In this document: positions 9,908 to 61,786 of the stretch, one piece after another
Position numbering within the stretch: position 1 is the stretch's first letter
How the letters are laid out: every line of letters begins with the position of its first letter
Virus record (IMG/VR): IMGVR_UViG_3300029705_000062
Length of the DNA stretch: 64,000 bases
Reading direction: 5' to 3' (one strand)
From: a virus
Notes under the pieces: model-generated
Seen by the model: the letters and a program-made list of their open reading frames with translations, nothing else
Databases searched by the model: none
What the model was told of the DNA's origin: nothing
Made by a program: the position numbers and the translations under genes

Positions 9908-11275
9908 GTGATACCGAATAATAATTTTTATGGAAAAAAAAGTGGAAAAACAATAAGGGATTTTACTGTTGACTTAGATTATAAACTTGAAACAGTTGAG
10001 GATAGAATAGAATTTCTAAACAACAGATTAGAAATTTCAAGGGTTGGAGATGTTGAGTTTGCTCATGATTTCTTTGTAGAATTATTTGACCAAACTTTTG
10101 ATGTTATTTTAGATAAGGATGGAATTTACTGGGTTGAAGAAGAACAGAGATATATGAATTGCTCTGAGTTTATATCTTGGTCTAGTAAAAATAATGTAAA
10201 TATTAATAAGTATCTAGATATACATACAGCATTTGATGAAATAGAGTATGAAGATGAATTACAAGAAAAAGGTTATTGGAACTACAGTAATGTAAATACA
10301 AGTAGTGTTAAATTACTTTTAAATTCAACGGATGCTCAATACAGTGAAAGTAATATAGCTAATGAACTTACAAAGTTAGCAGATTATATACTTGCAAAAG
10401 ACAAAAAAGAAAGCAAAGAAAAGATAAAAATATATAGTGAGGAAGACTTTAAGAAAAGACTACATGCAGAAAAAAACAAACTTGAGCCTTTAGAAAGAGT
10501 TAATGGAGATGAGTTTGTAATATTAAAAAAAGTTGAGAATTATAGATTAGCTCCTAAAATGACTATAAATAAATCTGATTATAAATTGCCTCTTATATAC
10601 AGAGGAACTTATGAAGATTATTTAGAGCATTGGAGAACTCATCAATATAAAAAAGTTTATTTAGATGGTAAATATAAAAAAGTTTATTTAGATAAGAGTG
10701 AAATAACTAATATAGCTCCGAGTGTTTGCATGACAGAGTTCCAATGGAATAAAGGTAAGAAAAATATGTTAGATAAGATTAAGCTTTTATCTGATGCTGA
10801 AGAAAATAAATCAGCTTTAAGAAATGAGCAAGATGGATGTAGGATAAGAGGTAATTCAGTTAAAAAAGTAGTTAATAATATTGGAGATATAAATGAATAT
10901 ATGAAATCTGTAAAAACATCTTATCATAATTATGTGTGCATAAAACCTGATAAATGTCCTGCAACAGTAGATATTCTAAATATGATTGATTACTCAAATG
11001 AAAAACATATATTAGGTCTAATTGGATTTCAAGGCTCAAAAAATGATTTGCAAAATGATATGGCTATACTTTTATATGATGTGGACAATGCCATAAAAAA
11101 AGCCAGTGAATTAGGTTTAATTGATACTACTGATTTAGGAATTATATTGCTTTTAAGAAAGGGTGTGTCTAAAGAGGATATATCCAAGAAAAAAAATCTT
11201 AGTAGGATGACAGTTCATAGAAGGTTGAAAAAAATCACTCTTTCAGTTATAGATATATTAAAAGGCAAAAAATAA
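9908..11275 (+). CDS. Putative transcriptional regulator with a C-terminal sigma-70 region-4-like HTH, 455 aa (GTG start)
   Basis: C-terminus LLLRKGVSKEDISKKKNLSRMTVHRRLKKI is HTH-like. Lies just upstream of the packaging genes. Function is inferred. Confidence 0.45.
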   Translation: MIPNNNFYGKKSGKTIRDFTVDLDYKLETVEDRIEFLNNRLEISRVGDVEFAHDFFVELFDQTFDVILDKDGIYWVEEEQRYMNCSEFISWSSKNNVNINKYLDIHTAFDEIEYEDELQEKGYWNYSNVNTSSVKLLLNSTDAQYSESNIANELTKLADYILAKDKKESKEKIKIYSEEDFKKRLHAEKNKLEPLERVNGDEFVILKKVENYRLAPKMTINKSDYKLPLIYRGTYEDYLEHWRTHQYKKVYLDGKYKKVYLDKSEITNIAPSVCMTEFQWNKGKKNMLDKIKLLSDAEENKSALRNEQDGCRIRGNSVKKVVNNIGDINEYMKSVKTSYHNYVCIKPDKCPATVDILNMIDYSNEKHILGLIGFQGSKNDLQNDMAILLYDVDNAIKKASELGLIDTTDLGIILLLRKGVSKEDISKKKNLSRMTVHRRLKKITLSVIDILKGKK

Positions 11276-33968: not shown

Positions 33969-36900
33969 AAAATCTATTGCCATTAATATGGCAGGTATAA
34001 AAGCTGATGCTTATACAGGCGAACTAGCTTTAAATAAAACAGCTCTTGCTCTTAAAGAAATAGCAAATATAGATGTCTACTCTGATAAGAAAAAGGGTGA
34101 GATAAAAGATATGGTTTCTATCCTTGACGAACTGTATGAACGTTGGGGAGATTTTACGGAAGAGGAACAGCTTGGACTAGCTGAAAGTATAGCGGGTAAG
34201 CAACAGTCCAAAGTTTTCCAATCTTTAATGACAAACTACAAAGATGTTTTATCTGTTAGAGAGCAATTATCTAATCAGGAACATTTTGGTAGTGCAGAAA
34301 GAGAGAATACTCAATACTTAGATAGTATCAGTGGTAAACTAAATGAGCTTAAGCAAACATGGATTTCTATATTAGATACATTTGCAAATTCAGATAGTAT
34401 AAAGAGTGCATTAGATGTGCTAATATCTGTATCTGAAGGTGTGGAAACAGTTGTAAAAGCTTTGGATGATGCAGGAATATTATTACAAGCTACTTTCACA
34501 GCATTTACATCAGGTGGAAGTCTACTTAAGAATCTAGCAGGATTTGGTGAAAGTTCTTATCAAATAAGACAAGTTGGAAATTCATTACAGCTTGTTGCAA
34601 CTCAAGCTAGTGCAGGAAATATACCACTAAAGCAAATGTTTAGTGGATTTACTAAGGGAACTACAGTAACTCAAAAACTTGGTAATGGATTAAAAACACT
34701 TGGTAAGTCTATGACTGCAAATTTAATACCAAGTTTTAAAGGTATGCTTTCAGCAGGATTAAAAGGCATGGCTGTGTCAGCAGTGATTACAGGTATTGGA
34801 TATGCACTTGATAAAACTGTAAATAAGTATAAGAATTTAGATAAGGAGTTACAGGCTCAAGCTGATACTACAGCTTCGCAACTAGAAGGATATAAAAAGC
34901 AAAAAAGTAGTTTAGAAGCTTTAGCAGATCAGTATGATACATTAGCTAAAAAATCTAATAAAACTGCTGAGGAACTTGCAACATTTAATGAATTAAAACA
35001 TCAAATTGCAGATTTATCTCCTGATTTGGTAATAGGTTATGACAGTGAGAATAATCCTATACTAAACTTAAATGGTAGCTTAGAAACATATATATCAAAC
35101 TTAGATGATGCCATTACTAGACAAAGAACTTTACTAGCAGGAGATAGTATGGCAGTTGGTAAAAATGCACTTGATAGTTTAAGTAGCACTTTAAACTTTA
35201 ACTTAACTCCTGATTTTAAATTAGATGATAGTGCTTTAAAAGAACAAGATGAAGCTATAGGTACTGCTAGGGAAAATTTAGTTAAAAAGCTTAATAAAAT
35301 AAATGAAGGACTTAACTTCAAAAGCCTTGAAGGAGAGTTAAAAAGTTATGCTCAACAAAATGACAAATACAATGAGCAGATAGTAAAGAGCTATCAAAAA
35401 GTTCAGGAAGCTCATGCTAAGATAACTGAACAAACATCAAAAGCAAAACAAGGTATAAATGCTCAATTAATGGACACTTCTGAAATGAAGAAAGCAGGGG
35501 AAGAAGTTCAAAAACTTGGAGCAAAAATGATTTCTGCTTTTGACTGGTCAGAGGTGGATTCAAATAGAGTTGACCAAATGGTTTACAATATGTCTAAAAA
35601 TCTTACTTCAGGGGAGTTTGATACAGCACTACAAAAAGTTGCGGAACTTAGACAAGAGCTTGAAGAAACTTATGATGTTGAAAAGTATGAATCACAAATA
35701 GATAAGTTCGTACCTCAAGTAGCAGATTTCTTAGGTGTATCAGAAGACATGGCTAGGTCTATGTTAAAAGTTCCTGAGATAATGAAGAGTTCAGAAGATG
35801 CTTTAGATCAGTTCCTTAGAACTATGGGTAAAACTAAAAAGTCTTTAAACTTTGATGTTGAAGCTCAAAATTTAGCGGAACAGTTCTATGCTGTTAATGA
35901 TGCAATATATCAATTAGCAGATACCTCAAATCTTGTAACAATAGATAATAAAATACAATTAAATCCTGAACTTGTTTTAAACACACTAAATAATGAATCT
36001 ATTCCTGAGCAAATAAGGAAATTATTAGGAGAGTTTAATAAAGACGGAGTTGTTGATGTTGGCGAAGTAGAACTTATGCTAGATGTTATGACAGCATTTA
36101 AATTAGGGGACACTCACCAGTCAAAAGAAATATTGGCACAAGTTCAAGAGGAGTTAGATAAAACATTAGGTGAAGGTGTAATAAATGTAAAAGACCTTAA
36201 ATTTGATGTTAATGGAAAAGTTGAAAATGTCAATATAGATAGCAAGGAACTTGAAGAAAAATTATCTGTACTTGGTGATAAGAAAGAATTAAAAACTCTT
36301 TTCACAACTGAGGTTATAGGATTAGATAGACTAGAATATTATACAGAAATTGTAAATAAGCTTCCTGCTGATTCTGAACATACAGAGAAATTTATAGTTG
36401 ATAATCAACAGGCTATATCTGAATTAAATAACTATAAAGAAGTAAAGGAATGGATAATAGCTCATCCTGAAGTTATTTCTAAATATAGATTAAATGTAGA
36501 AAAAGACCCTGAACTTAAAACTGCCTTAGAAGAATTTGAAAAGAACAACGGTAAAACAAGTGAAATTAAGGCTAAAGTAACAGAAGAAGGGGCAGATGAA
36601 ACTAACCAAAAACTTGAGGAAACAAAGAATAAAGCTGATGAGCTAGATAATAAAGATATTAACTTAACAGTTAATAATGGAGAATTACAAGGCTCAGTAG
36701 AAGATTTTAATAAACTTATAGAATACTCATCTAAATTAAAAGATGGTGAATATAAGTTATCTTTTACCTCTGACACTGGTGAATCTATAAACCAAATAAA
36801 TAATCTTAAAAATGCTATAAATGACCTTTCAGGTGCATTTAGTTCTTTACCTAGTGTAACAGTAAAAATTGAAACAGCACTTGCTAGTCAGAATATAACA

Positions 36901-39900
36901 GGATTAAGAAATAATATAGAAAGTTTTAAAACTTTAGCAGGTGGATTACAAACATTAGTATTTAAGACTGATACTGCACTTGCTAGTAAGAATGTTACAG
37001 GATTAAGAAATAATGTAGATAGTTACATTAAACAAAGAGCAGGGAAATCTTATTCTACAAGATTTAACACTGAGACAGCCTTAGCTAGTAAAAATGTTAC
37101 TGGTTTAGCAAATAAGGTTTCTAGTTATGTAAGAAGCTATGGTAATAGAACTATTAAGACTACTTTTAGTGTGGTAACAAAATATTCTACACAGGGAACT
37201 CCTACAACTCAAAGCAAAGGAGCAAAAGTTACTGGAAGAGCTATTCCTACATATGTTCCTGAATCATATGAAGTGGCACAGGTAAATGCTTCTCCTTTAA
37301 GTGAGTTTGCCAATCAAGTTCAAAGTGATACTGTAGCAATACAACGTATGGCAAGAACTGGTCAGGGAGTTTCAGAAGCTGTATCATCATATAGTTCTTC
37401 TATGGCTAGTATATCATCAAGAGCATTAACAAAAGCATTAGATAGTAATAAAGTTATTGATATGCTAAATCTTGATGTTGATCCTTTTAAAGATTTAGAA
37501 GATGTTTTAGAAAGAATTTCCAGTGAGTTAGATTTACTTAGTAAAAAAGCTGACTTAGCTTTTGGAAATGAAAAAATAACATATCTTAAAAGACAAGTAG
37601 AACTTCTTAAACAACAACAGCAAATCCAAAATAAACTAAGTAAAGATTATGCAACTCAACAAAATGAGTTAAAGTATTACTTAGGAAAAAAAGGATTTAC
37701 CTTTAACAGTCAAGGTGATGTAACTAATCAAGTTGATAAGTTATATCAAATGGAAAAATACGTTAAACAGCTTGAAGATAAAGTTAATGCACAGGGAGAT
37801 AAGAAAAATGAAGCTTTATCTAAGCAGTATGAAAGTGCTAGAGATGAATTAGAAAAAACTAAGGAAGTCTTAGAAGAGTATGTTAATAATAATTCTAAGG
37901 GTGTTACTGGTGCTACTAAGGAATGGTACGAACTTCAACAACAAATAAATGAAGCTCGTATGGAGATAATTCAAGCAACTATAGATGCTAAGAATTTTAA
38001 GTTTGAGATAGGTGCTAAAAAGTTTGAAGCAGAAGTTGATAAATTATCTAATGCAATTAACTTAATAGATAAACAGATTGAATATGCTTTTGGAGATGAA
38101 AAAGATAAGTTATTCAAGAAGAAGATAGAGTTATTAAAGAAACAGCAAAAAGAAGTTCATAATTTAGCTAACCAATATAGGGAACAGGCTAAAAGTATAG
38201 GGCAATTTTTAAATCAACAAGGTTTTATAATTAATTCCAGTGATGGAAGTATAGGTAATATAGAACACCTAGAGAGCTTTAAAAACAGTGGAATATATGA
38301 AGAAATAACTGAACAACTAGAGAAGTATATAGAATTAACTCAAAGTAAAATACCTGACCTTCAAGAAGAATGGTGGGAACTAAGAGAAGCAATAGATGAA
38401 GCTAGAATTGCTACTTTAGAAGCAAAAGATGAAATGTCTGATTTAGTATTAGAAATAAATATTTCTAAACTAGATACTGCTCTTAAAAAGATAAAGACTG
38501 AAATCAATAGACTAGAAAGAGAAATTGATAAAGCCTTTGGTAGCAAGAAAGAAGGTTTATTAAATGATAAGATAGATAAGTTAAAAGAAGAGCAAGATAA
38601 ACTTCATCAAATGGCAAATGAATATAGACAGCAAAGGCAAGAAATAGCTAACTTCTTAAATTCAAAAGGGTTTATAATTCATCCTGATGGCTCAATAGGA
38701 AATCCTGAATTTATCCTTAGCTTTAAAGAAGACCCTGCTCTAATGGAGTATTTACAAGGTCTTATAGATAAACATACTAGCTTAGGTGATAAAATAGCTG
38801 ACCTTGGAGAAGATTGGTGGAGTGTTCAAGATTCCATAGAAGATACAAAAGATGCTATAGAAGAAGCTAGAAAAGAATTAGAAAAATTCTTAAATGAAGC
38901 GAAAATTGAAGCACTGCTTGACCAGTTTAATGACCTTGCTCATAAACTTGATTTAATAGATAAAAAACTTAAACATGCAACTGGCAAGGATAAGTTAGAT
39001 TTATTAAGTCAAAAACTTGAGTTAATAAAAGAACAACAAATAGAATTACAAAAACATTGGGAGTTCTTTACTAATAAAAAGAATACTCTTCAAATGGAGT
39101 TAGGTCAACTAGGATTTACATTTGATGCAGATGGAGATATTACAAATTATGTAGAACAACTTGAAAGTATAGCTAACTCATCTGATGATTTTGAGGAAGT
39201 TAAAGATAAGTTAGAAGAATACTTTGATATTCAAAATGATAGATTACCTAGTATTGAAAGTGATTGGCTAGACCTTGAGAATACATATAAAGATGTCTTA
39301 AAAGAACAGCTTAATACAACTAAGGAAATTGAAGATAAAATTACTGAAATGTATAAAAAGCAAGTTGAAGACAGAATAGATGCAATGAACAAGGAAACTG
39401 ATGCCAAGATAAAAGCTCTTAAAAAGCAACAGGATGCCTATAATAAATATCGTGAAGAAACTGATTACAAAAATGAGTATGAAGATAAATTATTAGAAAT
39501 AAATGATATACAAAGGCAACTTGATATAGCAATGAAAGATACTTCTTTGGCAGGGCAAAAGAAAGTTAAGGAGCTACAAAAGCTATTAGCTGATGCTCAA
39601 AAGGAGTTAGATAAATTCACTCAAAATAAAATTGATAGTGATATCAATGATATGTTTGATAAAGAGAGTGAAAGAATAGAAGAAGAAAATGATAAGGCTA
39701 TAGAAGAGCTTGAGAAAGAATGGTCAGATAGTAAGATAGCTGAAATGGTTGCACAAGCATTACAAACTGGTATATTTACAGGAATAGATGGAAGTGTACA
39801 AGACCTTCAAGATGCTATGTTACAATTTGCCAATGATACTGGTGAATTGTTTGGAGTTATGGGAACTGTTATAAAATCCGAGTTAATAACTAACTTAGAT

Positions 39901-40188
39901 ATAGCAAAAAATACAGTTAAAGAACTTAACAAGATAATTAAAGAATTAGACTTGGAACAATTTGCGGTACTATCAGGTGCTTCAAGTTTTAGTAGAACTA
40001 TTTCAGGAGTAAGTATGGAAAGTTATACAAAGCCTATTCAAAATAATTATAGTCCTGAAATAAGATTTGATTCTCCATTAATTCATATAGAAGGAAATGT
40101 TGATAATGATGTATTAATGACTCTTGAAAGCTACGGAGAAAAATTAACTAAAGATATAATAAATCAAATTGCAGGAGCAATAAGATAA
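33969..40188 (+). CDS. Tape measure protein, exon 3 (about 2073 aa)
   Basis: The frame is open from 33970 (KSIAINMAGIK...), upstream of tracked ATG 33988. Hydrophobic segment near aa 250, then long coiled-coil repeats. Confidence 0.75.
36871..37140 (+). repeat. Three tandem 33-aa repeats (ETALASKNVTGLRNNV.S) inside the tape-measure gene
   Basis: ETALASQNITGLRNNIESF / DTALASKNVTGLRNNVDSY / ETALASKNVTGLANKVSSY. Confidence 0.8.
37500..39250 (+). repeat. Four tandem modules of about 140 aa inside the tape-measure gene
   Basis: Each module has L(D/I)L(L/I)(S/D)K..(A/E/K).AFG.(E/K)K......(I/V)ELLK.QQ ... N..GF(T/I)(F/I).....G.I.N plus WWEL/WWSV/WLDL. Confidence 0.75.
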
Positions 40189-54257: not shown

Positions 54258-56156
54258 ATGGCTATATTGAATGGTAAATATAGAGTTAAAAATTCTAAAA
54301 ATGATTATGATATAGTGTACTTAGAAACAGGTGCAAATCAAGTTAAGTTTAATGATGGAAAAACATTTCAAGAAAAATTAGAAGATGGAACTTTAAAAGG
54401 AGATAAAGGTGACAAGGGTGATACTGGTATAACTCCAACTATAAAAGCAGGTAGTGTAACAACAGGAAGTTCAGGATCAAGTGCAACAGTAACCGCAAGT
54501 ACAGTAGGAACTACAACTACATTTAATTTTGTAATTCCACAAGGTATTAAAGGAGATACTGGTGCAAAAGGAGATAAAGGAGACCAAGGTATACAAGGTG
54601 TTAAAGGAGATAAGGGTGATAAGGGAGAAGATGGTTTAACTACTTCTATTACTGTTGGCTCAACAAAGTATACACACTCTAATGGTAATATAACTATTCC
54701 TGCTTATCCTACATTATCTTCTTTAGGAGCTTCTGCATCTTCTCATACTCACAGTCAATATGAAAATCAAAATGCATTTTCTAGTGTGAAAGTTGGTTCA
54801 ACAACAGTGACTGCTGATAGTCCTACAGATACTATAGAATTAAAAGCAGGTTCAAATATAACTTTAACTCCTGATAGTACAAATGATGCTATAACAATAG
54901 CTGTTAATGGTATGACTGTTACAAGTTCTGAAAAATCTGATTGGAATGCTAAGGAAACTACATCAGGTTCTCAAGCTAAGGCAGACAAAGCTAAGTCAGA
55001 TGCAATATCTTCTGCTAAATCTTATACAGATGAAAAGGTTGCACAATTTATTGATTCTGCTCCTGAGACATTAGATACACTAAATGAACTTGCTAAGGCT
55101 CTTGGCAATGACCCTAATTTTGCTACTACAGTAGCAACTCAAATAGGTACTAAAGCAGATACTTCTTATGTAAATACTGAATTAGATAAAAAAGCAAATG
55201 CTTCACATGGAACTCATGTAACTTACTCAACAACTGCTCCTTTATCTAATGGAACAGCATCTGTAGGTACATCAGGAAGTGTTTCTAGAGGAGACCATGT
55301 TCATCCACTTCAAACAACGGTATCAGGAAATGCAGGTACAGCTACTACATTACAAACTGCAAGAACTATTAATGGAACAAGTTTCAACGGTAGTGCTAAC
55401 ATTACTACTGCAAACTGGGGAACTGCTAGAAATATAACAATAGGAAATGCAACAAAATCTGTAAATGGTTCAGGAAATGTTTCTTGGACATTGGCTGAAA
55501 TAGGAGCTTCATCTACATCAGTGGCTACTACTTCTGCAAATGGTTTAATGTCCGCACAGGATAAAACTAAGTTAGATTCAATAGCTACAAATTCTCAATT
55601 TAAAATAACAGTTGCATCAAGCTCTTGGACTACTGACGGTTCACTTTACAGTACAACAATCAAACACAACTTAAATAAAGAGGTTCTTTATGTAAGTGCT
55701 TATGATTCAAGTTCAAAGAAGAGTATATTTGTTTCTTATACAATAACAGATAACAACTCTTTAAAAGTTACAGTTGAAAGTGCTATAAATGCGGTTATAA
55801 CTATTGTTGTTGAAGGTGGATTGGTAAATCTTGCAGGAGGAGGAATAAGTGACTCTACTGTTTCTGCTACTAGCACTTGGTCAAGTACAAAAATAGAAAG
55901 TGCAATGAGTGGACTTGTTAAAGACGGTACAACTAGCCAAAAAGGTATCGTACAATTATCTTCGGCAATTAATAGTACAAGTACAACATTAGGTGCAACT
56001 GCAAGTGCTGTAAAACTTGCTTATGATTTAGCTAATACAGCTAACAATTTAGCTAATACAGTTAATAATTCAACTAATAATCAACGTACAATAACAATGT
56101 CTACTGCTGACCCTTCAGGAGGTAAGGACGGAGATATATGGTTTAAATATGAATAA
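54258..56156 (+). CDS. Tail fibre protein with collagen-like G-X-Y runs, 632 aa
   Basis: GDKGDKGDTG and GDTGAKGDKGDQGIQGVKGDKGDKGEDG. DSAPETLDTLNELAKAL motif. S/T-rich C-terminus. Confidence 0.65.
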   Translation: MAILNGKYRVKNSKNDYDIVYLETGANQVKFNDGKTFQEKLEDGTLKGDKGDKGDTGITPTIKAGSVTTGSSGSSATVTASTVGTTTTFNFVIPQGIKGDTGAKGDKGDQGIQGVKGDKGDKGEDGLTTSITVGSTKYTHSNGNITIPAYPTLSSLGASASSHTHSQYENQNAFSSVKVGSTTVTADSPTDTIELKAGSNITLTPDSTNDAITIAVNGMTVTSSEKSDWNAKETTSGSQAKADKAKSDAISSAKSYTDEKVAQFIDSAPETLDTLNELAKALGNDPNFATTVATQIGTKADTSYVNTELDKKANASHGTHVTYSTTAPLSNGTASVGTSGSVSRGDHVHPLQTTVSGNAGTATTLQTARTINGTSFNGSANITTANWGTARNITIGNATKSVNGSGNVSWTLAEIGASSTSVATTSANGLMSAQDKTKLDSIATNSQFKITVASSSWTTDGSLYSTTIKHNLNKEVLYVSAYDSSSKKSIFVSYTITDNNSLKVTVESAINAVITIVVEGGLVNLAGGGISDSTVSATSTWSSTKIESAMSGLVKDGTTSQKGIVQLSSAINSTSTTLGATASAVKLAYDLANTANNLANTVNNSTNNQRTITMSTADPSGGKDGDIWFKYE

Positions 56157-56167
56157 AGAGGTGAAAT

Positions 56168-57073
56168 ATGAGCATAAGTGCAACATTTACAAATAATCCT
56201 ATATATAACTTTGACTATACTGGCACACAGCAAGAGTTTATTGCTCCTTATAATGGAACATATCAATTAGAGGTATGGGGTGCTGAAGGTGGTAACAGAA
56301 GTGGTACTGCTTCAGGTGGAAAAGGAGGATATTCTTGTGGTCAAATTAATCTTAAAAAAGGAGATATTCTTTATATCTATGTAGGTGGAAATGGTAATGA
56401 CGGTAAAGGTTATAATGGAGGAGGTCAGGTTGGCTCTACTGCTGTATATGGCGGTGGTGGCACTGACATAAGAAAAGACGGTACTGAATTAGCCAACCGT
56501 ATAATCGTAGCAGGGGGAGGAGGCTCTGTTGGAGCTTCATATAATGCAGGTGCTTACGGTGGAGGTACTACAGGTGGTTCTGCTTCTGATGGATATGGTA
56601 CTGGTGGTGGCGGTGCAACTCAGACCGCAGGTGGGTCAGGTTATTCAGTTTATCCAGCTTCCATAGGTTCTCTTGGAAAAGGTGGAAATGGTTATTATGC
56701 TTCATCTGGTTACGGAGGAGCAGGAGGAGGGGGCTACTACGGTGGTGGTGGTGTCTATCCTGATTCATCAGTAGATGATGATAGAGGTGGAGGAGGAGGT
56801 TCAGGGTATATTAATACTTCTGTACTTTCGGTTGCTTCAACTAAAGCTGGTAATACATCTATCCCAACTACAGGTACAAATCTAACTGGCTCAACAATAG
56901 GAAGGTCAGGTCATGGTAGTTGTAGAATAATATTAGTAACAAAGGAAACAACTCCTGTATATATAAATGTAAATGGAACATGGAAAGAAGCTGTTACATA
57001 TATAAATGTAAATGGAACATGGAAAGAAACAACTCCACAAATAAATGTAAATGAAACATGGAAAAATTTATAA
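56168..57073 (+). CDS. Glycine-rich domain protein with a triple C-terminal YINVNGTWKE repeat
   Basis: EVWGAEGG...GGKGGY......GD.LYIYVGG.G...GGGGTDIR......RIIVAGGGG is the pattern of the 'glycine-rich domain' family. The 39-nt repeat occurs 3 times at 56963-57067. Confidence 0.6.
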   Translation: MSISATFTNNPIYNFDYTGTQQEFIAPYNGTYQLEVWGAEGGNRSGTASGGKGGYSCGQINLKKGDILYIYVGGNGNDGKGYNGGGQVGSTAVYGGGGTDIRKDGTELANRIIVAGGGGSVGASYNAGAYGGGTTGGSASDGYGTGGGGATQTAGGSGYSVYPASIGSLGKGGNGYYASSGYGGAGGGGYYGGGGVYPDSSVDDDRGGGGGSGYINTSVLSVASTKAGNTSIPTTGTNLTGSTIGRSGHGSCRIILVTKETTPVYINVNGTWKEAVTYINVNGTWKETTPQINVNETWKNL

Positions 57074-57163: not shown

Positions 57164-57337
57164 TTGTTATCTGAAACTATGATGACTAAATTAAAAAATG
57201 TTCCCAGTAATCTTAATTCTAAAATAACAGAATTAAATAACAAATTAGCAACTTTAGAAAGCAAAGCAAAATCTATTTCCCATACAGAAGAGGAGGTAAT
57301 TAATAATGCTAGGGTCTACGATTCAAGAAAAAGTTAA
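57164..57337 (+). CDS. Possible small protein (57 aa, TTG start), below the ORF-track cutoff
   Basis: AGGAGGG RBS 8 nt upstream. TKLKNVPSNLNSKITELNNKLATL is paralogous to the N-terminus of the next ORF. Confidence 0.4.
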   Translation: MLSETMMTKLKNVPSNLNSKITELNNKLATLESKAKSISHTEEEVINNARVYDSRKS

Positions 57338-57536
57338 GAATTTGCCTACTAATACAAACAGCACTATAAGTAGTATGGAAACAAGAATAAACACTATATC
57401 CACAGATGTTGATAATGGCAAAAACGCAATAGCTTCTGCTATCACTTCAAAGGGAACAAGTGCTAGTGGTTCAGAAACTTTTGACGAATTAGCTACTAAA
57501 ATAAGAAACATGCAAAGTGGTGCTGTTTTTTCGTAA
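57306..57536 (+). CDS. Small protein, 76 aa
   Basis: GAGGAGG RBS. N-terminus EKVKNLPTNTNSTISSMETRINTI is paralogous to 57164..57337. Overlaps that ORF by 32 nt. Confidence 0.5.
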   Translation: MLGSTIQEKVKNLPTNTNSTISSMETRINTISTDVDNGKNAIASAITSKGTSASGSETFDELATKIRNMQSGAVFS

Positions 57537-57568: not shown

Positions 57569-58315
57569 ATGGCAACAATAGATTATAATGCTCAAAATTT
57601 TATAGATATGAAGCAACGTATAAAAAATGAAGTTAATAGAAGACAGTATACAGGCTCGATAACTTCATATGGAACAGCAACTTATGACTATACAGTAACT
57701 CCTGTTAAAGGGAATAAAGTTCTTGTTGAACATTATAATAAAATAGCTACTCCATTAAGAGCTATTAATCCTGATGGAATAATTGAATCAGCAAAAGTAG
57801 GTGATGATGTAAGTACTGTTACTACACCAACAGAATTAGATGCAAGAATAACTTTATATGCTTCTAAATCACTTACAGCTTCATCTTCTAATACAGGTTG
57901 TGCTACAAGTTGCACAGGACTGTGTTCAACTGCTTGTACAGGAACTTGCTCAGGCGGATGTAGTGGGAGCTGTACTGGAACTTGTAGTGGAACTTGTTCA
58001 GGAGGATGTACTGGATGTAGTGGATGTGGAGGTTCTTGTTCATATAATTGTTCAGGAACTTGCTCAGGAAGTTGTTCAGATGCATGTACTGGGTGCAGTG
58101 GGTGTAGTGGAACTTGTTCAGGAACATGTACAGGATGTTCAGGTGGGTGTACTGGTCAATGTACTGGTGGATGTGGAGGTTCTTGTTCAGGAGCTTGTTG
58201 GGGTTCTTGTGGCGGAGCTTGTGCAAATGGATGTTCAACAGGATGTGGTAACTCTTGTTCAGGAGCTTGTTGGGGTTCAGGTGGAAAAGGAGTTACACAA
58301 TTTAAAGTAAAATAA
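57569..58315 (+). CDS. Cysteine-repeat protein: about 110-aa N-terminal domain plus about 125-aa C(S/T)G(S/T)-type repeat with 33 Cys
   Basis: ATG 57569 after a GAAAGGGTG RBS. The C-terminal half is almost only C, G, S, T and A with CX3C (some CX2C) spacing. Confidence 0.7.
   Translation: MATIDYNAQNFIDMKQRIKNEVNRRQYTGSITSYGTATYDYTVTPVKGNKVLVEHYNKIATPLRAINPDGIIESAKVGDDVSTVTTPTELDARITLYASKSLTASSSNTGCATSCTGLCSTACTGTCSGGCSGSCTGTCSGTCSGGCTGCSGCGGSCSYNCSGTCSGSCSDACTGCSGCSGTCSGTCTGCSGGCTGQCTGGCGGSCSGACWGSCGGACANGCSTGCGNSCSGACWGSGGKGVTQFKVK
57899..58270 (+). repeat. 12-nt-periodic coding repeat (TGY-WSN-GGN-WSN) encoding the CX3C array
   Basis: 33 Cys codons in about 124 codons. The low-complexity sequence leaves extra frames open (shadow ORFs 57858..58310 + and 57903..58238 -). 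Confidence 0.85.
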
Positions 58316-58326
58316 GGGGGTATAAT

Positions 58327-58881
58327 ATGAAAGATGATTTTAATAGATATTTAAAATCTGCAAATCACAGAGTTGATATTGTAAGATATCTTCGAGGTGG
58401 AGAAAAAGATGAAACAGTGTTAAGAGAAATATTAGAAAATTTAAAAGCTTCGTCTATAACTGAGTATGAAGTTCATACATTTATAACTGAGTTAATAACA
58501 GTTCATTTAGAAGATGTTAATGTAGATACACTTTATATGTTCTTTAGAATATTAAATGAAGTATTTGGATATGAACTAGATGCTGATAAATATGTTTATA
58601 TGTCTATGTTATATATAGAATATCCTAAAATACCTAAGAAATTAAGTAAGAGTGATATAGATTCATTGTCAGATATTTTTAATGATGGTGATTTTATAAA
58701 TTCTTGTAAACCAAGATTATTAATGTCTTTTTCTTCTCTTTATTTAGAAATTCTTCTAAATAGTGGAAAAGATTATGAAGAAATGGCAAAGATAAGTGCA
58801 ATTTTAAGAAATGCTCATACAGTTATGATGAATGAAGAAAAAAAATTAGTTAAAGAACTATCAGAAAATTTACAAAAGTAA
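58327..58881 (+). CDS. Hypothetical helical protein, 184 aa (cassette member)
   Basis: Starts 11 nt after the Cys-repeat gene stop, with a AAGGGGG RBS. Confidence 0.6.
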   Translation: MKDDFNRYLKSANHRVDIVRYLRGGEKDETVLREILENLKASSITEYEVHTFITELITVHLEDVNVDTLYMFFRILNEVFGYELDADKYVYMSMLYIEYPKIPKKLSKSDIDSLSDIFNDGDFINSCKPRLLMSFSSLYLEILLNSGKDYEEMAKISAILRNAHTVMMNEEKKLVKELSENLQK

Positions 58882-58901: not shown

Positions 58902-59234
58902 ATGAAAAATAAAATATATATAAAAATAGATGAAATCACTTGTGGATATATTCAATATCTTAATCACAGGGTTAATGGATATAAAGAAGTATTAACAGAG
59001 GTTATATCTAATAAAAGATTTGGTTTAAAAATAGATGAAAAACTATTTGAAATGTACAATGACCTTTATGTAAAGTATTATACTGAATTTCAGACAACAA
59101 AGGATGTTTTAATAGAGGAATTATTCCCTGTTAAAAACAGAAAAAAAGATACTATGTATATGTATACTATAGATTATATAAGCAATGAGCTAATAATAGA
59201 GGAAGTGAGGGATTTACATGAGACTAAAAGGTAA
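58902..59234 (+). CDS. Hypothetical protein, about 110 aa (cassette member)
   Basis: GAGAGG RBS. Its stop overlaps the start of the radical SAM gene by 17 nt. Confidence 0.55.
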   Translation: MKNKIYIKIDEITCGYIQYLNHRVNGYKEVLTEVISNKRFGLKIDEKLFEMYNDLYVKYYTEFQTTKDVLIEELFPVKNRKKDTMYMYTIDYISNELIIEEVRDLHETKR

Positions 59235-60708: not shown

Positions 60709-61434
60709 ATGAGCTTAGTAATTTTAGATAGCGGACATAATGAATATGTTAAAGGAAAAAGCAATGGGGATTTTAAAGAATGGGACTTTAACAATAAAAT
60801 GCAATGTAAAATTAAGAAAAGACTTTTAGATCATGGAATAGAAGTTTACTTAACTAATCCAAACCCTGAGAAAAAAGATGAAATAGGTTTAAGTAAAAGA
60901 GCAACCATTTCAAATGATTATTGGATAAAGAAAGGTAAGCCGAAGGCTGTATTTATATCTTTGCATGGAAATGCTTATAGTGATGCTAGTGTTAGAGGAA
61001 CAGAAACATTCCATGCTAATAATGCTTCGTCTACATCAAAAACATTTGCAAAAACATTAAATGATGAAGTTGTAAAAACAATGAAATCATTAGATAAAAA
61101 TGCAAAGGATAGAGGAGTTAAATCACAAGATTTCACTGTAATATATAAAACTTCTATGCCTTCAGTGTTAGTTGAGTATGGATTTTACAGTAACCCTGAT
61201 GATTTAAAGATATTAAAAAATAACCAAGATGACCTAACAGAAGCTACAGTTAAAGCCATATGCAAACACTTTAATATAACATATAAAGCTGTACAAAAGG
61301 AATCTACAACTTCAAGCACAGGAACACAGTTGTATGCAGTATGTGTAGGAGCTTATGGATATGACCAAGCTAAAAAAATGCAACAAGAAATGATATCAAA
61401 AGGATATACTAGCACTTATATAATCCCTAGATAG
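60709..61434 (+). CDS. N-acetylmuramoyl-L-alanine amidase endolysin (Amidase_3-like) with a SPOR-like C-terminus
   Basis: ILDSGHN...E.DFN...FISLHGNA...GTETF...DRGVK...F.VI....PSVLVEYGF.SNP.D. C-terminal YAVCVGAYGYDQAKKMQQEMISKGY. Confidence 0.85.
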   Translation: MSLVILDSGHNEYVKGKSNGDFKEWDFNNKMQCKIKKRLLDHGIEVYLTNPNPEKKDEIGLSKRATISNDYWIKKGKPKAVFISLHGNAYSDASVRGTETFHANNASSTSKTFAKTLNDEVVKTMKSLDKNAKDRGVKSQDFTVIYKTSMPSVLVEYGFYSNPDDLKILKNNQDDLTEATVKAICKHFNITYKAVQKESTTSSTGTQLYAVCVGAYGYDQAKKMQQEMISKGYTSTYIIPR

Positions 61435-61748: not shown

Positions 61749-61786
61749 GGACTTATGTTTAACTGTTTAAGCATAAGTCCTTTTTA
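61749..61786 (+). terminator. Intrinsic terminator in the leader, 16 nt upstream of the rep gene (possible attenuator)
   Basis: GGACTTATG ... CATAAGTCC followed by TTTTT. Confidence 0.65.

Follow-up and report, generated by a model that had tools for sequence, protein, structure and literature searches.

The stretch analyzed here (the window) comprises 64,000 nucleotides of the virus record IMGVR_UViG_3300029705_000062 from IMG/VR, and all coordinates refer to it. It corresponds to the structural half of a phage that resembles siphoviruses. At the end of its tail-fiber genes lies a gene for a 248-residue protein, in which a helical N-terminal domain is followed by a dense array of cysteines. 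Three more genes follow on the same strand and encode a 184-residue protein, a 110-residue protein, and a radical S-adenosylmethionine (SAM) enzyme with a SPASM domain. The four genes are separated by gaps of 11 and 20 nt and, before the last one, an overlap of 17 nt (Table 1). Judging by sequence families and gene order, this cassette belongs to the catalogued CXXX-repeat peptide modification system (TIGR04115 for the enzyme, TIGR04116 for a partner protein, and TIGR04114, TIGR04117, or PF27846 for the target), which has been defined bioinformatically. The TIGRFAMs entries of the system presumably date from about 2011–2012.

Translation of positions 57899–58270 gives 124 residues with a cysteine at each end and 33 cysteines in all (27%), in line with an earlier reading of the sequence alone (the original prediction), which had put 33 cysteines in about 124 residues. 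Successive cysteines are 4 residues apart in 27 cases and 3 residues apart in 5. The unit is C-[S/T]-G-x, and it is the x that is missing from the CX2C repeats. The original prediction also held that the array is built only from cysteine, glycine, serine, threonine, and alanine. This is nearly right: these five make up 116 of the 124 residues (35 glycines, 33 cysteines, 24 serines, 17 threonines, and 7 alanines), and the other eight are three asparagines and one each of leucine, tyrosine, aspartate, glutamine, and tryptophan. Two tryptophans had been noted, both in CSGACWGS; one is inside the array and the other directly follows its last cysteine. At the DNA level, self-identity peaks at lags of 12, 24, and 36 nt (0.55, 0.55, and 0.50, versus ~0.2 off-phase), which agrees with the 12-nt periodicity that had been reported. 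The reported GC excess is also there: the array is 47.3% GC, whereas the window has 29.4% and the gene's own N-terminal part 30.6%. Tandem Repeats Finder reported only short and imperfect arrays of 9, 12, 24, 42, and 78 nt (62–93% matches). In a six-frame translation of the window, there was no second segment with at least 8 cysteines at 3- to 5-residue spacing. The array is far beyond what chance would produce.

We searched for known families that the 248-residue protein might belong to. The array is matched by phrog_6085. The scores with TIGR04114 (12.4 bits, cutoff 20) and TIGR04117 (13.9 bits, cutoff 50) are both sub-threshold; a homolog from locus L001 scores 21.3 bits with TIGR04114. The original prediction had likened the array to neither metallothionein nor collagen, and Pfam and NCBIfam gave no match to families of this kind or to Fe-S scaffolds, for metallothioneins even at a reporting limit of E = 10. 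It is also far longer than the cores of characterized sactipeptides and ranthipeptides, as had been claimed.

The frame and the assembly were also checked. Two more frames are open across the array, as predicted: the +1 frame is open across the entire array (open reading frame [ORF] 57858–58310), and so is one ORF on the minus strand (57903–58238). These could mean that another frame or strand is the real gene, or the array could be misassembled. In comparisons with the related genes at loci L002 and L004, substitutions in the array at codon positions 1, 2, and 3 number 15, 10, and 36 (L002) and 17, 18, and 41 (L004), and every aligned cysteine is conserved (30/30 and 32/32). This pattern points to purifying selection in the annotated frame. 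Because of the excess of third-position substitutions, the conserved cysteines, and the continuity of this frame with the conserved N-terminal domain, we take the annotated frame to be the translated one. Gene callers on identical contigs likewise predict 248 residues. The 747-nt gene has 0 differences across three independent assemblies (JGI, ENA, and Logan), so it is not an assembly artifact, and the repeat is degenerate at the DNA level. The extra open frames occur in homologs too, and we take them to be a by-product of codon periodicity. The checks on the two doubts that had been raised with the original prediction, about frame and assembly, thus speak against them, and we regard the artifact explanation as effectively refuted.

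The N-terminal domain ends at a conserved junction, SK-x-LT-x-SSS-x-x-G, directly ahead of the first cysteine. A profile search with the domain found 191 proteins. Among the best 120 of these, a cysteine array follows the domain in 119. It begins near residue 106, contains 4–33 cysteines, and is usually followed by another 2–12 residues. The spacings of 4, 3, and 5 residues are in the ratio 2027:449:19 in these relatives, and no X position of the repeat has a conserved side chain. Many of the relatives, including protein P0123, bear a precomputed match to PF27846 (tSAM_targ_Cxxx_rpt). A structure prediction with AlphaFold2 (AF2) from 93 sequences gave a helical N-terminal domain, with a block-mean predicted local distance difference test (pLDDT) of ~79–94 over residues 11–100, and a pLDDT below 50 for the array. 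In the model, then, the first ~100 residues form a confidently folded domain, and the array, unless it is modified, is predicted to be disordered and to have no fold. The predicted fold of the domain had no match in the PDB (best E = 3.6), and its significant matches in BFVD (E ≤ 0.001) were just three proteins, from contigs of uncultured sipho- or podoviruses, with the same layout. None of the cassette proteins has a paralog elsewhere within the window. The domain would be expected to yield tryptic peptides such as QYTGSITSYGTATYDYTVTPVK.

A disordered segment so rich in cysteine might bind metal: its thiolates could chelate zinc, copper, iron, or Fe-S clusters, as in metallothioneins, while the maturase acts elsewhere or uses the protein as a cluster donor. 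With 27% cysteine flanked by small residues, production in a reducing cytoplasm, and an AF2 model that shows no fold without ligands, the array would suit such a role. We nevertheless consider this improbable. No metallothionein or Fe-S scaffold family in Pfam or NCBIfam matches the protein, and a strict ladder of CX3C and CX2C over 124 residues, with a cysteine count that varies freely between 17 and 72 among relatives, gives no hint of defined metal sites. Also, at the level of families, the array protein co-occurs with a TIGR04116-like protein and a SPASM enzyme of the peptide-maturase type.

It is this enzyme that the original prediction missed. The pattern that it described is real, but the TIGR04115 enzyme about 900 nt downstream and its TIGR04116-like partner were overlooked. 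The maturase gene starts 903 nt past the end of the target gene's stop codon, on the same strand. The protein matches the NCBIfam model TIGR04115 (“radical SAM peptide maturase, CXXX-repeat target family”) with 402.5 bits, above the cutoff of 350 (E = 2.1e-120, profile positions 2–359 of 359). The next families are PapB (NF047865; 187.7 bits, cutoff 340), the SCIFF maturase (121.1 bits, cutoff 425), and QhpD (119.3 bits), all under their own cutoffs. PapB, the SCIFF maturase, and QhpD all form thioethers. The protein also matches Radical_SAM and Fer4_12 from Pfam. Across 34 aligned homologs (including the window protein), the CX3CX2C motif (C45, C49, and C52) is invariant, as are seven C-terminal cysteines (C292, C310, C360, C363, C369, C372, and C391), so its SPASM domain is complete. 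Among solved structures, CteB (5WGG, E = 5e-21) is the nearest, with residues 32–379 of the maturase aligned to residues 94–425 of CteB. Since the alignment starts at residue 94, the fused PqqD-like leader-recognition domain (RRE) of CteB has no counterpart in the maturase. The match to TIGR03974 begins at profile position 76. Pfam and NCBIfam scans of the accessory proteins found no match to PqqD.

Homologs of the maturase are common: among the candidates that we scored, more than 2,400 had E ≤ 1e-30, and several of them carry the family's name in JGI or NCBI. An identical maturase is found on 23 contigs. The phage recurs in gut metagenomes, and the contig of one relative comes from the pig gut. 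When the cassette was compared to 50,697 phage records by megablast, there was no match, and an IMG/VR pattern scan with the single maturase gave none either. At the protein level, the best matches among phages are on contigs of uncultured phages from human feces (40% and 37% identity). Radical SAM genes of jumbo phages (~26% identity to the maturase) are a different family.

The 110-residue protein has no direct match to any hidden Markov model (HMM), even at the reporting limit of E = 10. It can be aligned with the ~100-residue partners that precede the maturase in other cassettes. TIGR04116 (“CXXX repeat peptide modification system protein”) directly matches three of 13 cassette partners (best E = 2.7e-24). 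When we compared the phage-type partners to three peptide-type partners (presumably the TIGR04116-positive ones) with hhalign, the probability was 91.4% (E = 9e-7, 81 columns, nearly full length). These profile comparisons suggest that the 110-residue protein is a divergent homolog of TIGR04116. An AF2 model from the single sequence (pLDDT 46) is too poor to judge whether it has an RRE fold, and a profile search of the PDB gave weak helical noise only. The 184-residue protein has no match in Pfam, NCBIfam, or PHROG, and has only 2 representative clusters among 1.84 billion proteins. A positional counterpart is found at L001, L002, L004, L005, L006, L086, and L088, with none at L007–L009 or L087. 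We rejected a relationship between the two accessory proteins (hhalign probability of 0.1%).

Cassettes of this kind recur. In phages and prophages, the order is array protein, optional ~180-residue protein, ~100-residue protein, and maturase. This order is found in close relatives of the window (L002, L004, and L090–L092) and in more distant phages or prophages (L001, L005–L009, L086, L087, L088, and L089). At L016 and L018, an array ORF lies ahead of the maturase and the accessory ORFs are ambiguous. All of the TIGR04115-like genome loci with enough flanking sequence have a cysteine-array ORF beside the maturase, except for L017, from a metagenome-assembled genome (MAG) of Aminicenantes, where we found no precursor. 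Weaker radical SAM matches mostly lack a neighboring array ORF. Conversely, the three N-terminal domain proteins whose surroundings were inspected, on four contigs, all have a maturase two or three genes downstream. As for the setting, the cassette recurs in the tail or tail-fiber modules of many phages and prophages, mostly from Clostridia-class anaerobes, with 17–72 cysteines. For instance, PHROG matches identify a tail protein upstream and a tail-fiber protein downstream of the cassette at L087, and tail-fiber-like matches are downstream of it at L006. Often, endolysin or holin genes come next. Nearly all of the genome loci have annotations to Clostridia-class taxa; these are strict anaerobes, which fits with an oxygen-sensitive enzyme.

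A second architecture is found in bacteria (L014 and L015): a cysteine-array peptide of 57–72 residues, a TIGR04116 protein, a maturase ORF of ~720 residues, and an ORF of ~550 residues that was not family-scanned and may be an ABC-type exporter. At locus L012, a short precursor comes with a TIGR04116-type partner, and there is no long maturase ORF or exporter. These are classical peptide clusters (L012 only in part) with the same family of maturase, and they bring up the main rival to our interpretation, which is that the 248-residue protein is the precursor of a peptide that is made on ribosomes and modified after translation (RiPP). The N-terminal domain would be a long leader, and the modified cysteine core would be cleaved off and released at lysis as a bacteriocin-like or signaling peptide that benefits the phage or the lysogen. 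Long leaders of the NHLP and Nif11 types are established, and the conserved junction before the array could be a processing site. In contrast to the peptide clusters, none of the phage-type cassettes that we examined has an adjoining protease or exporter. Also, the cassette is in or at the end of a tail or tail-fiber module instead of in a cargo island, the N-terminal domain is conserved and well folded in the AF2 model, and some members of the family have a further segment past the array. We therefore view a released peptide as unlikely. The other alternatives are less likely still: metal binding, then an unmodified linker (discussed below), and then an artifact.

The length of the array varies among relatives. 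There are 33 cysteines in the window, 31 at L002, 32 at L004, 22 in P0123, and 17 in P0121; the maturases of L002 and L004 are 97% and 79% identical to that of the window. Prophage loci from Neglectibacter timonensis and from a Eubacteriales MAG have 59 and 72 cysteines. So, although the array was described as extreme, and is long, it is not extreme for the family. P0123 retains both ends of the window array and is missing ~40 central residues. In P0121 and P0122 (L088 7126–7740 and L089 3362–3976), a shorter array is succeeded by a C-terminal segment of ~45 residues with scattered cysteines (..SVSSECLWENNKYQLGKNIDIDEIDYKCEFNLGKITIKKGEN), so the array of these close relatives of the 248-residue protein is flanked by other segments on both sides. 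Continuing past the array is what we would expect of a protein and not of a peptide core. The last ~140 nt of the gene (58133–58312) are nearly identical in the window, L002, and L004, and the remainder differs by ~20%. The near-invariant end encodes CGGSCSGACWGSCGGACANGCSTGCGNSCSGACWGSGGKGVTxFKVK, and its conservation suggests either a constrained C-terminal tip or recent recombination.

The original prediction proposed that changes in repeat number would be tolerated in frame. Counts do vary, and the indels at L002 and L004 are in frame, but there is no sign of active slippage. Contigs with an identical maturase carry an identical array, which implies that the length changes on an evolutionary timescale and not as a hypermutable switch. 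We rejected the idea of a hypermutable contingency repeat, as the repeat is degenerate at the DNA level and the gene is identical in the three independent assemblies. At L005 (5360–6272, a MAG contig), the array is split between two frames, with 12 cysteines in the frame of the N-terminal domain and then 31 in an ORF that overlaps it. Either the frameshift is real, or it arose within the repeat through assembly or sequencing.

The free variation in length, together with the poor conservation of the array's center among relatives, is what one would expect if the array were an unmodified low-complexity linker or a disulfide-rich fiber, that is, a flexible spacer that is oxidized outside the cell and is next to a radical SAM gene by coincidence. 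Against this, all of the aligned cysteines are kept while the residues between them change, and the adjacency to a maturase recurs across distant phages and bacteria. Also, disulfides would not be stable because the habitat is anoxic. We find this explanation very hard to sustain.

Turning to the surroundings, a collagen-like tail fiber and a protein with an ALK/LTK-type glycine-rich domain precede the cassette, and an endolysin gene follows it.

Table 1. Features of the cassette and of the rest of the window.
Feature	Position	Strand	Remarks
CXXX-repeat target gene, 248 aa	57569..58315	+	ATG at 57569, GAAAGGG before the ATG; N-terminal domain, cysteine array, tail, stop codon
N-terminal domain, ~110 aa	57569..57898	+	helical; no signal peptide
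Cysteine array	57899..58270	+	predicted modification substrate; unit C-[S/T]-G-x, occasionally C-x-x
Tail of the 248-aa protein, 14 aa after the array			WGSGGKGVTQFKVK
184-aa accessory protein	58327..58881	+	fast-evolving; probably all-helical; only in some cassettes
110-aa accessory protein	58902..59234	+	putative divergent TIGR04116 homolog; last 17 nt shared with the maturase start
Radical SAM/SPASM peptide maturase, CXXX-repeat target family, 448 aa	59218..60564	+	TIGR04115; no fused N-terminal RRE
Portal protein	17084		
Two tape-measure-like giant ORFs, 1608 and 2066 aa	27328-32154, 33988-40188	+	tape-measure PHROGs
Tail protein with glycerophosphodiesterase region	42657		
Tail fiber genes	up to 56156		
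Collagen-like tail fiber protein	54258-56156	+	tail-fiber PHROGs
301-aa protein, ALK/LTK-type glycine-rich domain	56168-57073	+	PF12810, E 5e-33
Two small ORFs, 57 and 76 aa	57164-57337, 57306-57536	+	overlap by 32 nt
Amidase_3 endolysin	60709..61434	+	downstream of the cassette

The order of tail-fiber and ALK/LTK genes ahead of the cassette is also found at L088–L092. There are no terminator-like sites on the plus strand between 56020 and 61749, and the sole strong terminator-like hairpin on that strand comes after the endolysin (61749–61780), so the cassette is probably read together with the late tail and lysis genes. Upstream, a 455-residue ORF (9908–11275, plus strand) has a PHROG match to phage sigma factors (E = 4e-28), which hints at a phage-specific promoter for the late genes, the cassette among them, of a kind that a sigma-70 scan would not see.

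Several smaller observations concern the neighboring genes. The 301-residue protein ends with three tandem copies of ~13 residues (..YINVNGTWKE..), with a 67-nt self-match that is 88% identical. The 57- and 76-residue ORFs look alike (KNVPSNLNSKITELNNK.. and KNLPTNTNSTISSMETR..), and ORFs are predicted at the same positions at L088–L092; they could be one gene that is joined via a frameshift, or a paralogous pair. The 76-residue product is weakly similar to the coiled-coil protein SF-assemblin. Also, one contig that bears the identical maturase is 126 kb long, and a relative's contig encodes NrdD/NrdG, RecU, and guanylate kinase, which indicates that the phage is large and has an anaerobic nucleotide metabolism of its own.

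How might the cassette work? We think it probable that the array serves as the substrate region in a CXXX-repeat modification cassette of four genes, which lies at the late tail-fiber end of a siphovirus-like phage whose host is an anaerobic, low-GC bacterium of the gut, and that the protein is thioether-stapled and tail-associated. The parts of this reading differ in strength. That the array is what the maturase acts on, we hold with high confidence. That the product is a set of thioether cross-links, we favor by a little. That the 248-residue protein is a component of the virion or tail is a closer call still, and falls somewhat short of an even chance. The fullest version, in which the modified protein is built into the tail and the phage's own radical SAM enzyme converts its 33 cysteines to a thioether ladder as an oxygen-independent substitute for disulfides in phages of strict anaerobes, is a tentative proposal that may well be wrong.

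In this model, the 248-residue protein would be made late in infection, in the reducing cytoplasm. The folded N-terminal domain would be the handle for modification. The TIGR04116-like partner, along with the 184-residue protein in this lineage, would present the target to the maturase, and the TIGR04116-like protein might replace the missing RRE. PapB, CteB, and QhpD are SPASM enzymes that join the sulfur of a cysteine to a carbon radical, which is formed when a 5'-deoxyadenosyl radical abstracts hydrogen. By analogy with these, its nearest characterized relatives, the maturase would proceed along the C-[S/T]-G-x units, and at each turnover it would cleave SAM and take a hydrogen atom from a nearby carbon. 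This carbon would then be bonded to the sulfur of a cysteine held on an auxiliary Fe-S cluster, to give a thioether. Because no X position has a conserved side chain and the array contains a single aspartate, the acceptor would more likely be a backbone Cα or a carbon of serine or threonine than the β-carbon of aspartate (the acceptor for PapB). With many such bridges, a disordered segment would become a rod or knot, covalently stapled and resistant to reduction and proteases. After modification, the protein would probably stay intact, attached to its N-terminal domain, as a tail-associated part, and the stapled array would stand in for disulfides, which are unreliable in an anaerobe's environment.

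Several points weigh against this proposal. The array is under the cutoff of TIGR04114 (12.4 versus 20 bits), and the 110-residue protein is tied to TIGR04116 by profile–profile comparison only. With one aspartate and no glutamate in the array, PapB-type chemistry cannot apply, and the enzyme could in fact carry out a reaction other than thioether formation. The argument for a role in the virion is from synteny, namely the location of cassettes in or at the end of tail and tail-fiber modules. The slot between the tail fibers and the lysis genes also holds phages' non-structural cargo genes. The 248-residue protein had no fold or sequence match to a structural protein in PHROG, the PDB, or BFVD; in particular, its N-terminal domain resembles no known tail or adaptor fold from the PDB or BFVD, and it has no paralog in the window. 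RiPP precursors with long leader domains are known, and the N-terminal domain could accordingly be a leader, to be removed by cleavage later on. Finally, our searches of a literature library found no experimental study of any member of the family, and no publication on the chemistry or the role of the CXXX-repeat family or cassette; the sole mention of TIGR04115 was as an annotation, in a paper on the pig gut. Those searches did return two papers by Daugavet on “cysteine-rich repeats,” which we set aside: they concern a different repeat module that is almost exclusively eukaryotic.

The CXXX-repeat family is large (over 2,400 maturase homologs and 191 proteins with the N-terminal domain and array) and recurs in gut phages and prophages. 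The phage in the window offers a compact and abundant test case, with four genes, 33 potential sites, and an identical maturase on 23 contigs; its tail setting and its protein-sized substrate make it a good experimental entry point into the family. If the protein is indeed stapled and on the tail, then radical SAM peptide chemistry extends to virion proteins. To our knowledge, this would be the first report of a viral structural protein with RiPP-type cross-links made by a radical SAM enzyme, and these would far outnumber the six that PapB makes in PapA. This would also give an explanation of how, in the reducing gut, tail appendages could become covalently stable. Furthermore, the maturase would then be an enzyme able to process dozens of sites on a substrate the size of a protein, which is of interest for stapling peptides or proteins. 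If a peptide is released instead, then this would be a phage-borne RiPP.

It remains to compare the cassette to known systems. It resembles the CXXX-repeat system in the following respects: the maturase scores above the TIGR04115 cutoff, a target with tandem Cys-Xaa-Xaa-Xaa repeats is upstream, profile comparison identifies a homologous partner of ~100 residues, and the order of target, partner or partners, and maturase is that of the phage-type loci. On the other hand, the target and the partner are below the curated HMM cutoffs. There are also differences from the peptide type of the system. The target in the window has a folded domain of ~110 residues and 33 cysteines instead of being a peptide of 57–72 residues. 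The maturase has ~440 residues and lacks the extra extension of ~280 residues, and the cassette has an additional orphan protein of 184 residues and no exporter.

Metallothioneins and other cysteine-rich, low-complexity proteins share the high cysteine content and the small residues in between. But the array is a regular CX3C/CX2C ladder and does not have CxC or CC clusters, it does not match these families, and its gene is linked to a peptide maturase.

PapB, which forms the ranthipeptide freyrasin from PapA, comes second among the family matches of the maturase (187.7 bits). This SPASM enzyme installs serial thioethers at cysteines that recur with a three-residue gap, with six thioethers in CX3D motifs (PMC9413430). 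Unlike the putative modification of the array, which has a single aspartate, PapB requires an aspartate, a glutamate, or a C-terminal carboxylate as the acceptor. The maturase scores far under the PapB cutoff of 340 bits. Also, PapA has six sites and a short leader that is read by an RRE, while the target in the window has 33 sites and its enzyme has no RRE.

CteB, the SCIFF maturase for thermocellin (5WGG), is the closest solved structure across the radical SAM and SPASM regions, and it comes from a clostridial, cysteine-rich system that forms thioethers. However, residues 1–93 of CteB (the RRE) have no counterpart in the maturase, and SCIFF is a small peptide, with six cysteines in ~45 residues. 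The maturase's score of 121 bits is well below the cutoff of 425. The cassette is not of the PapB type or the SCIFF type, nor is it a metallothionein.

Finally, QhpD, which matures the QhpC subunit of quinohemoprotein amine dehydrogenase, is a SPASM enzyme (119 bits) whose thioether bridges staple a protein subunit which is kept in a larger assembly. QhpC has few bridges, from cysteine to aspartate or glutamate, and has no repeat array, and it is periplasmic and part of an enzyme. For a putative role of the target that is structural and not antibiotic, QhpD and QhpC are the closest precedent.

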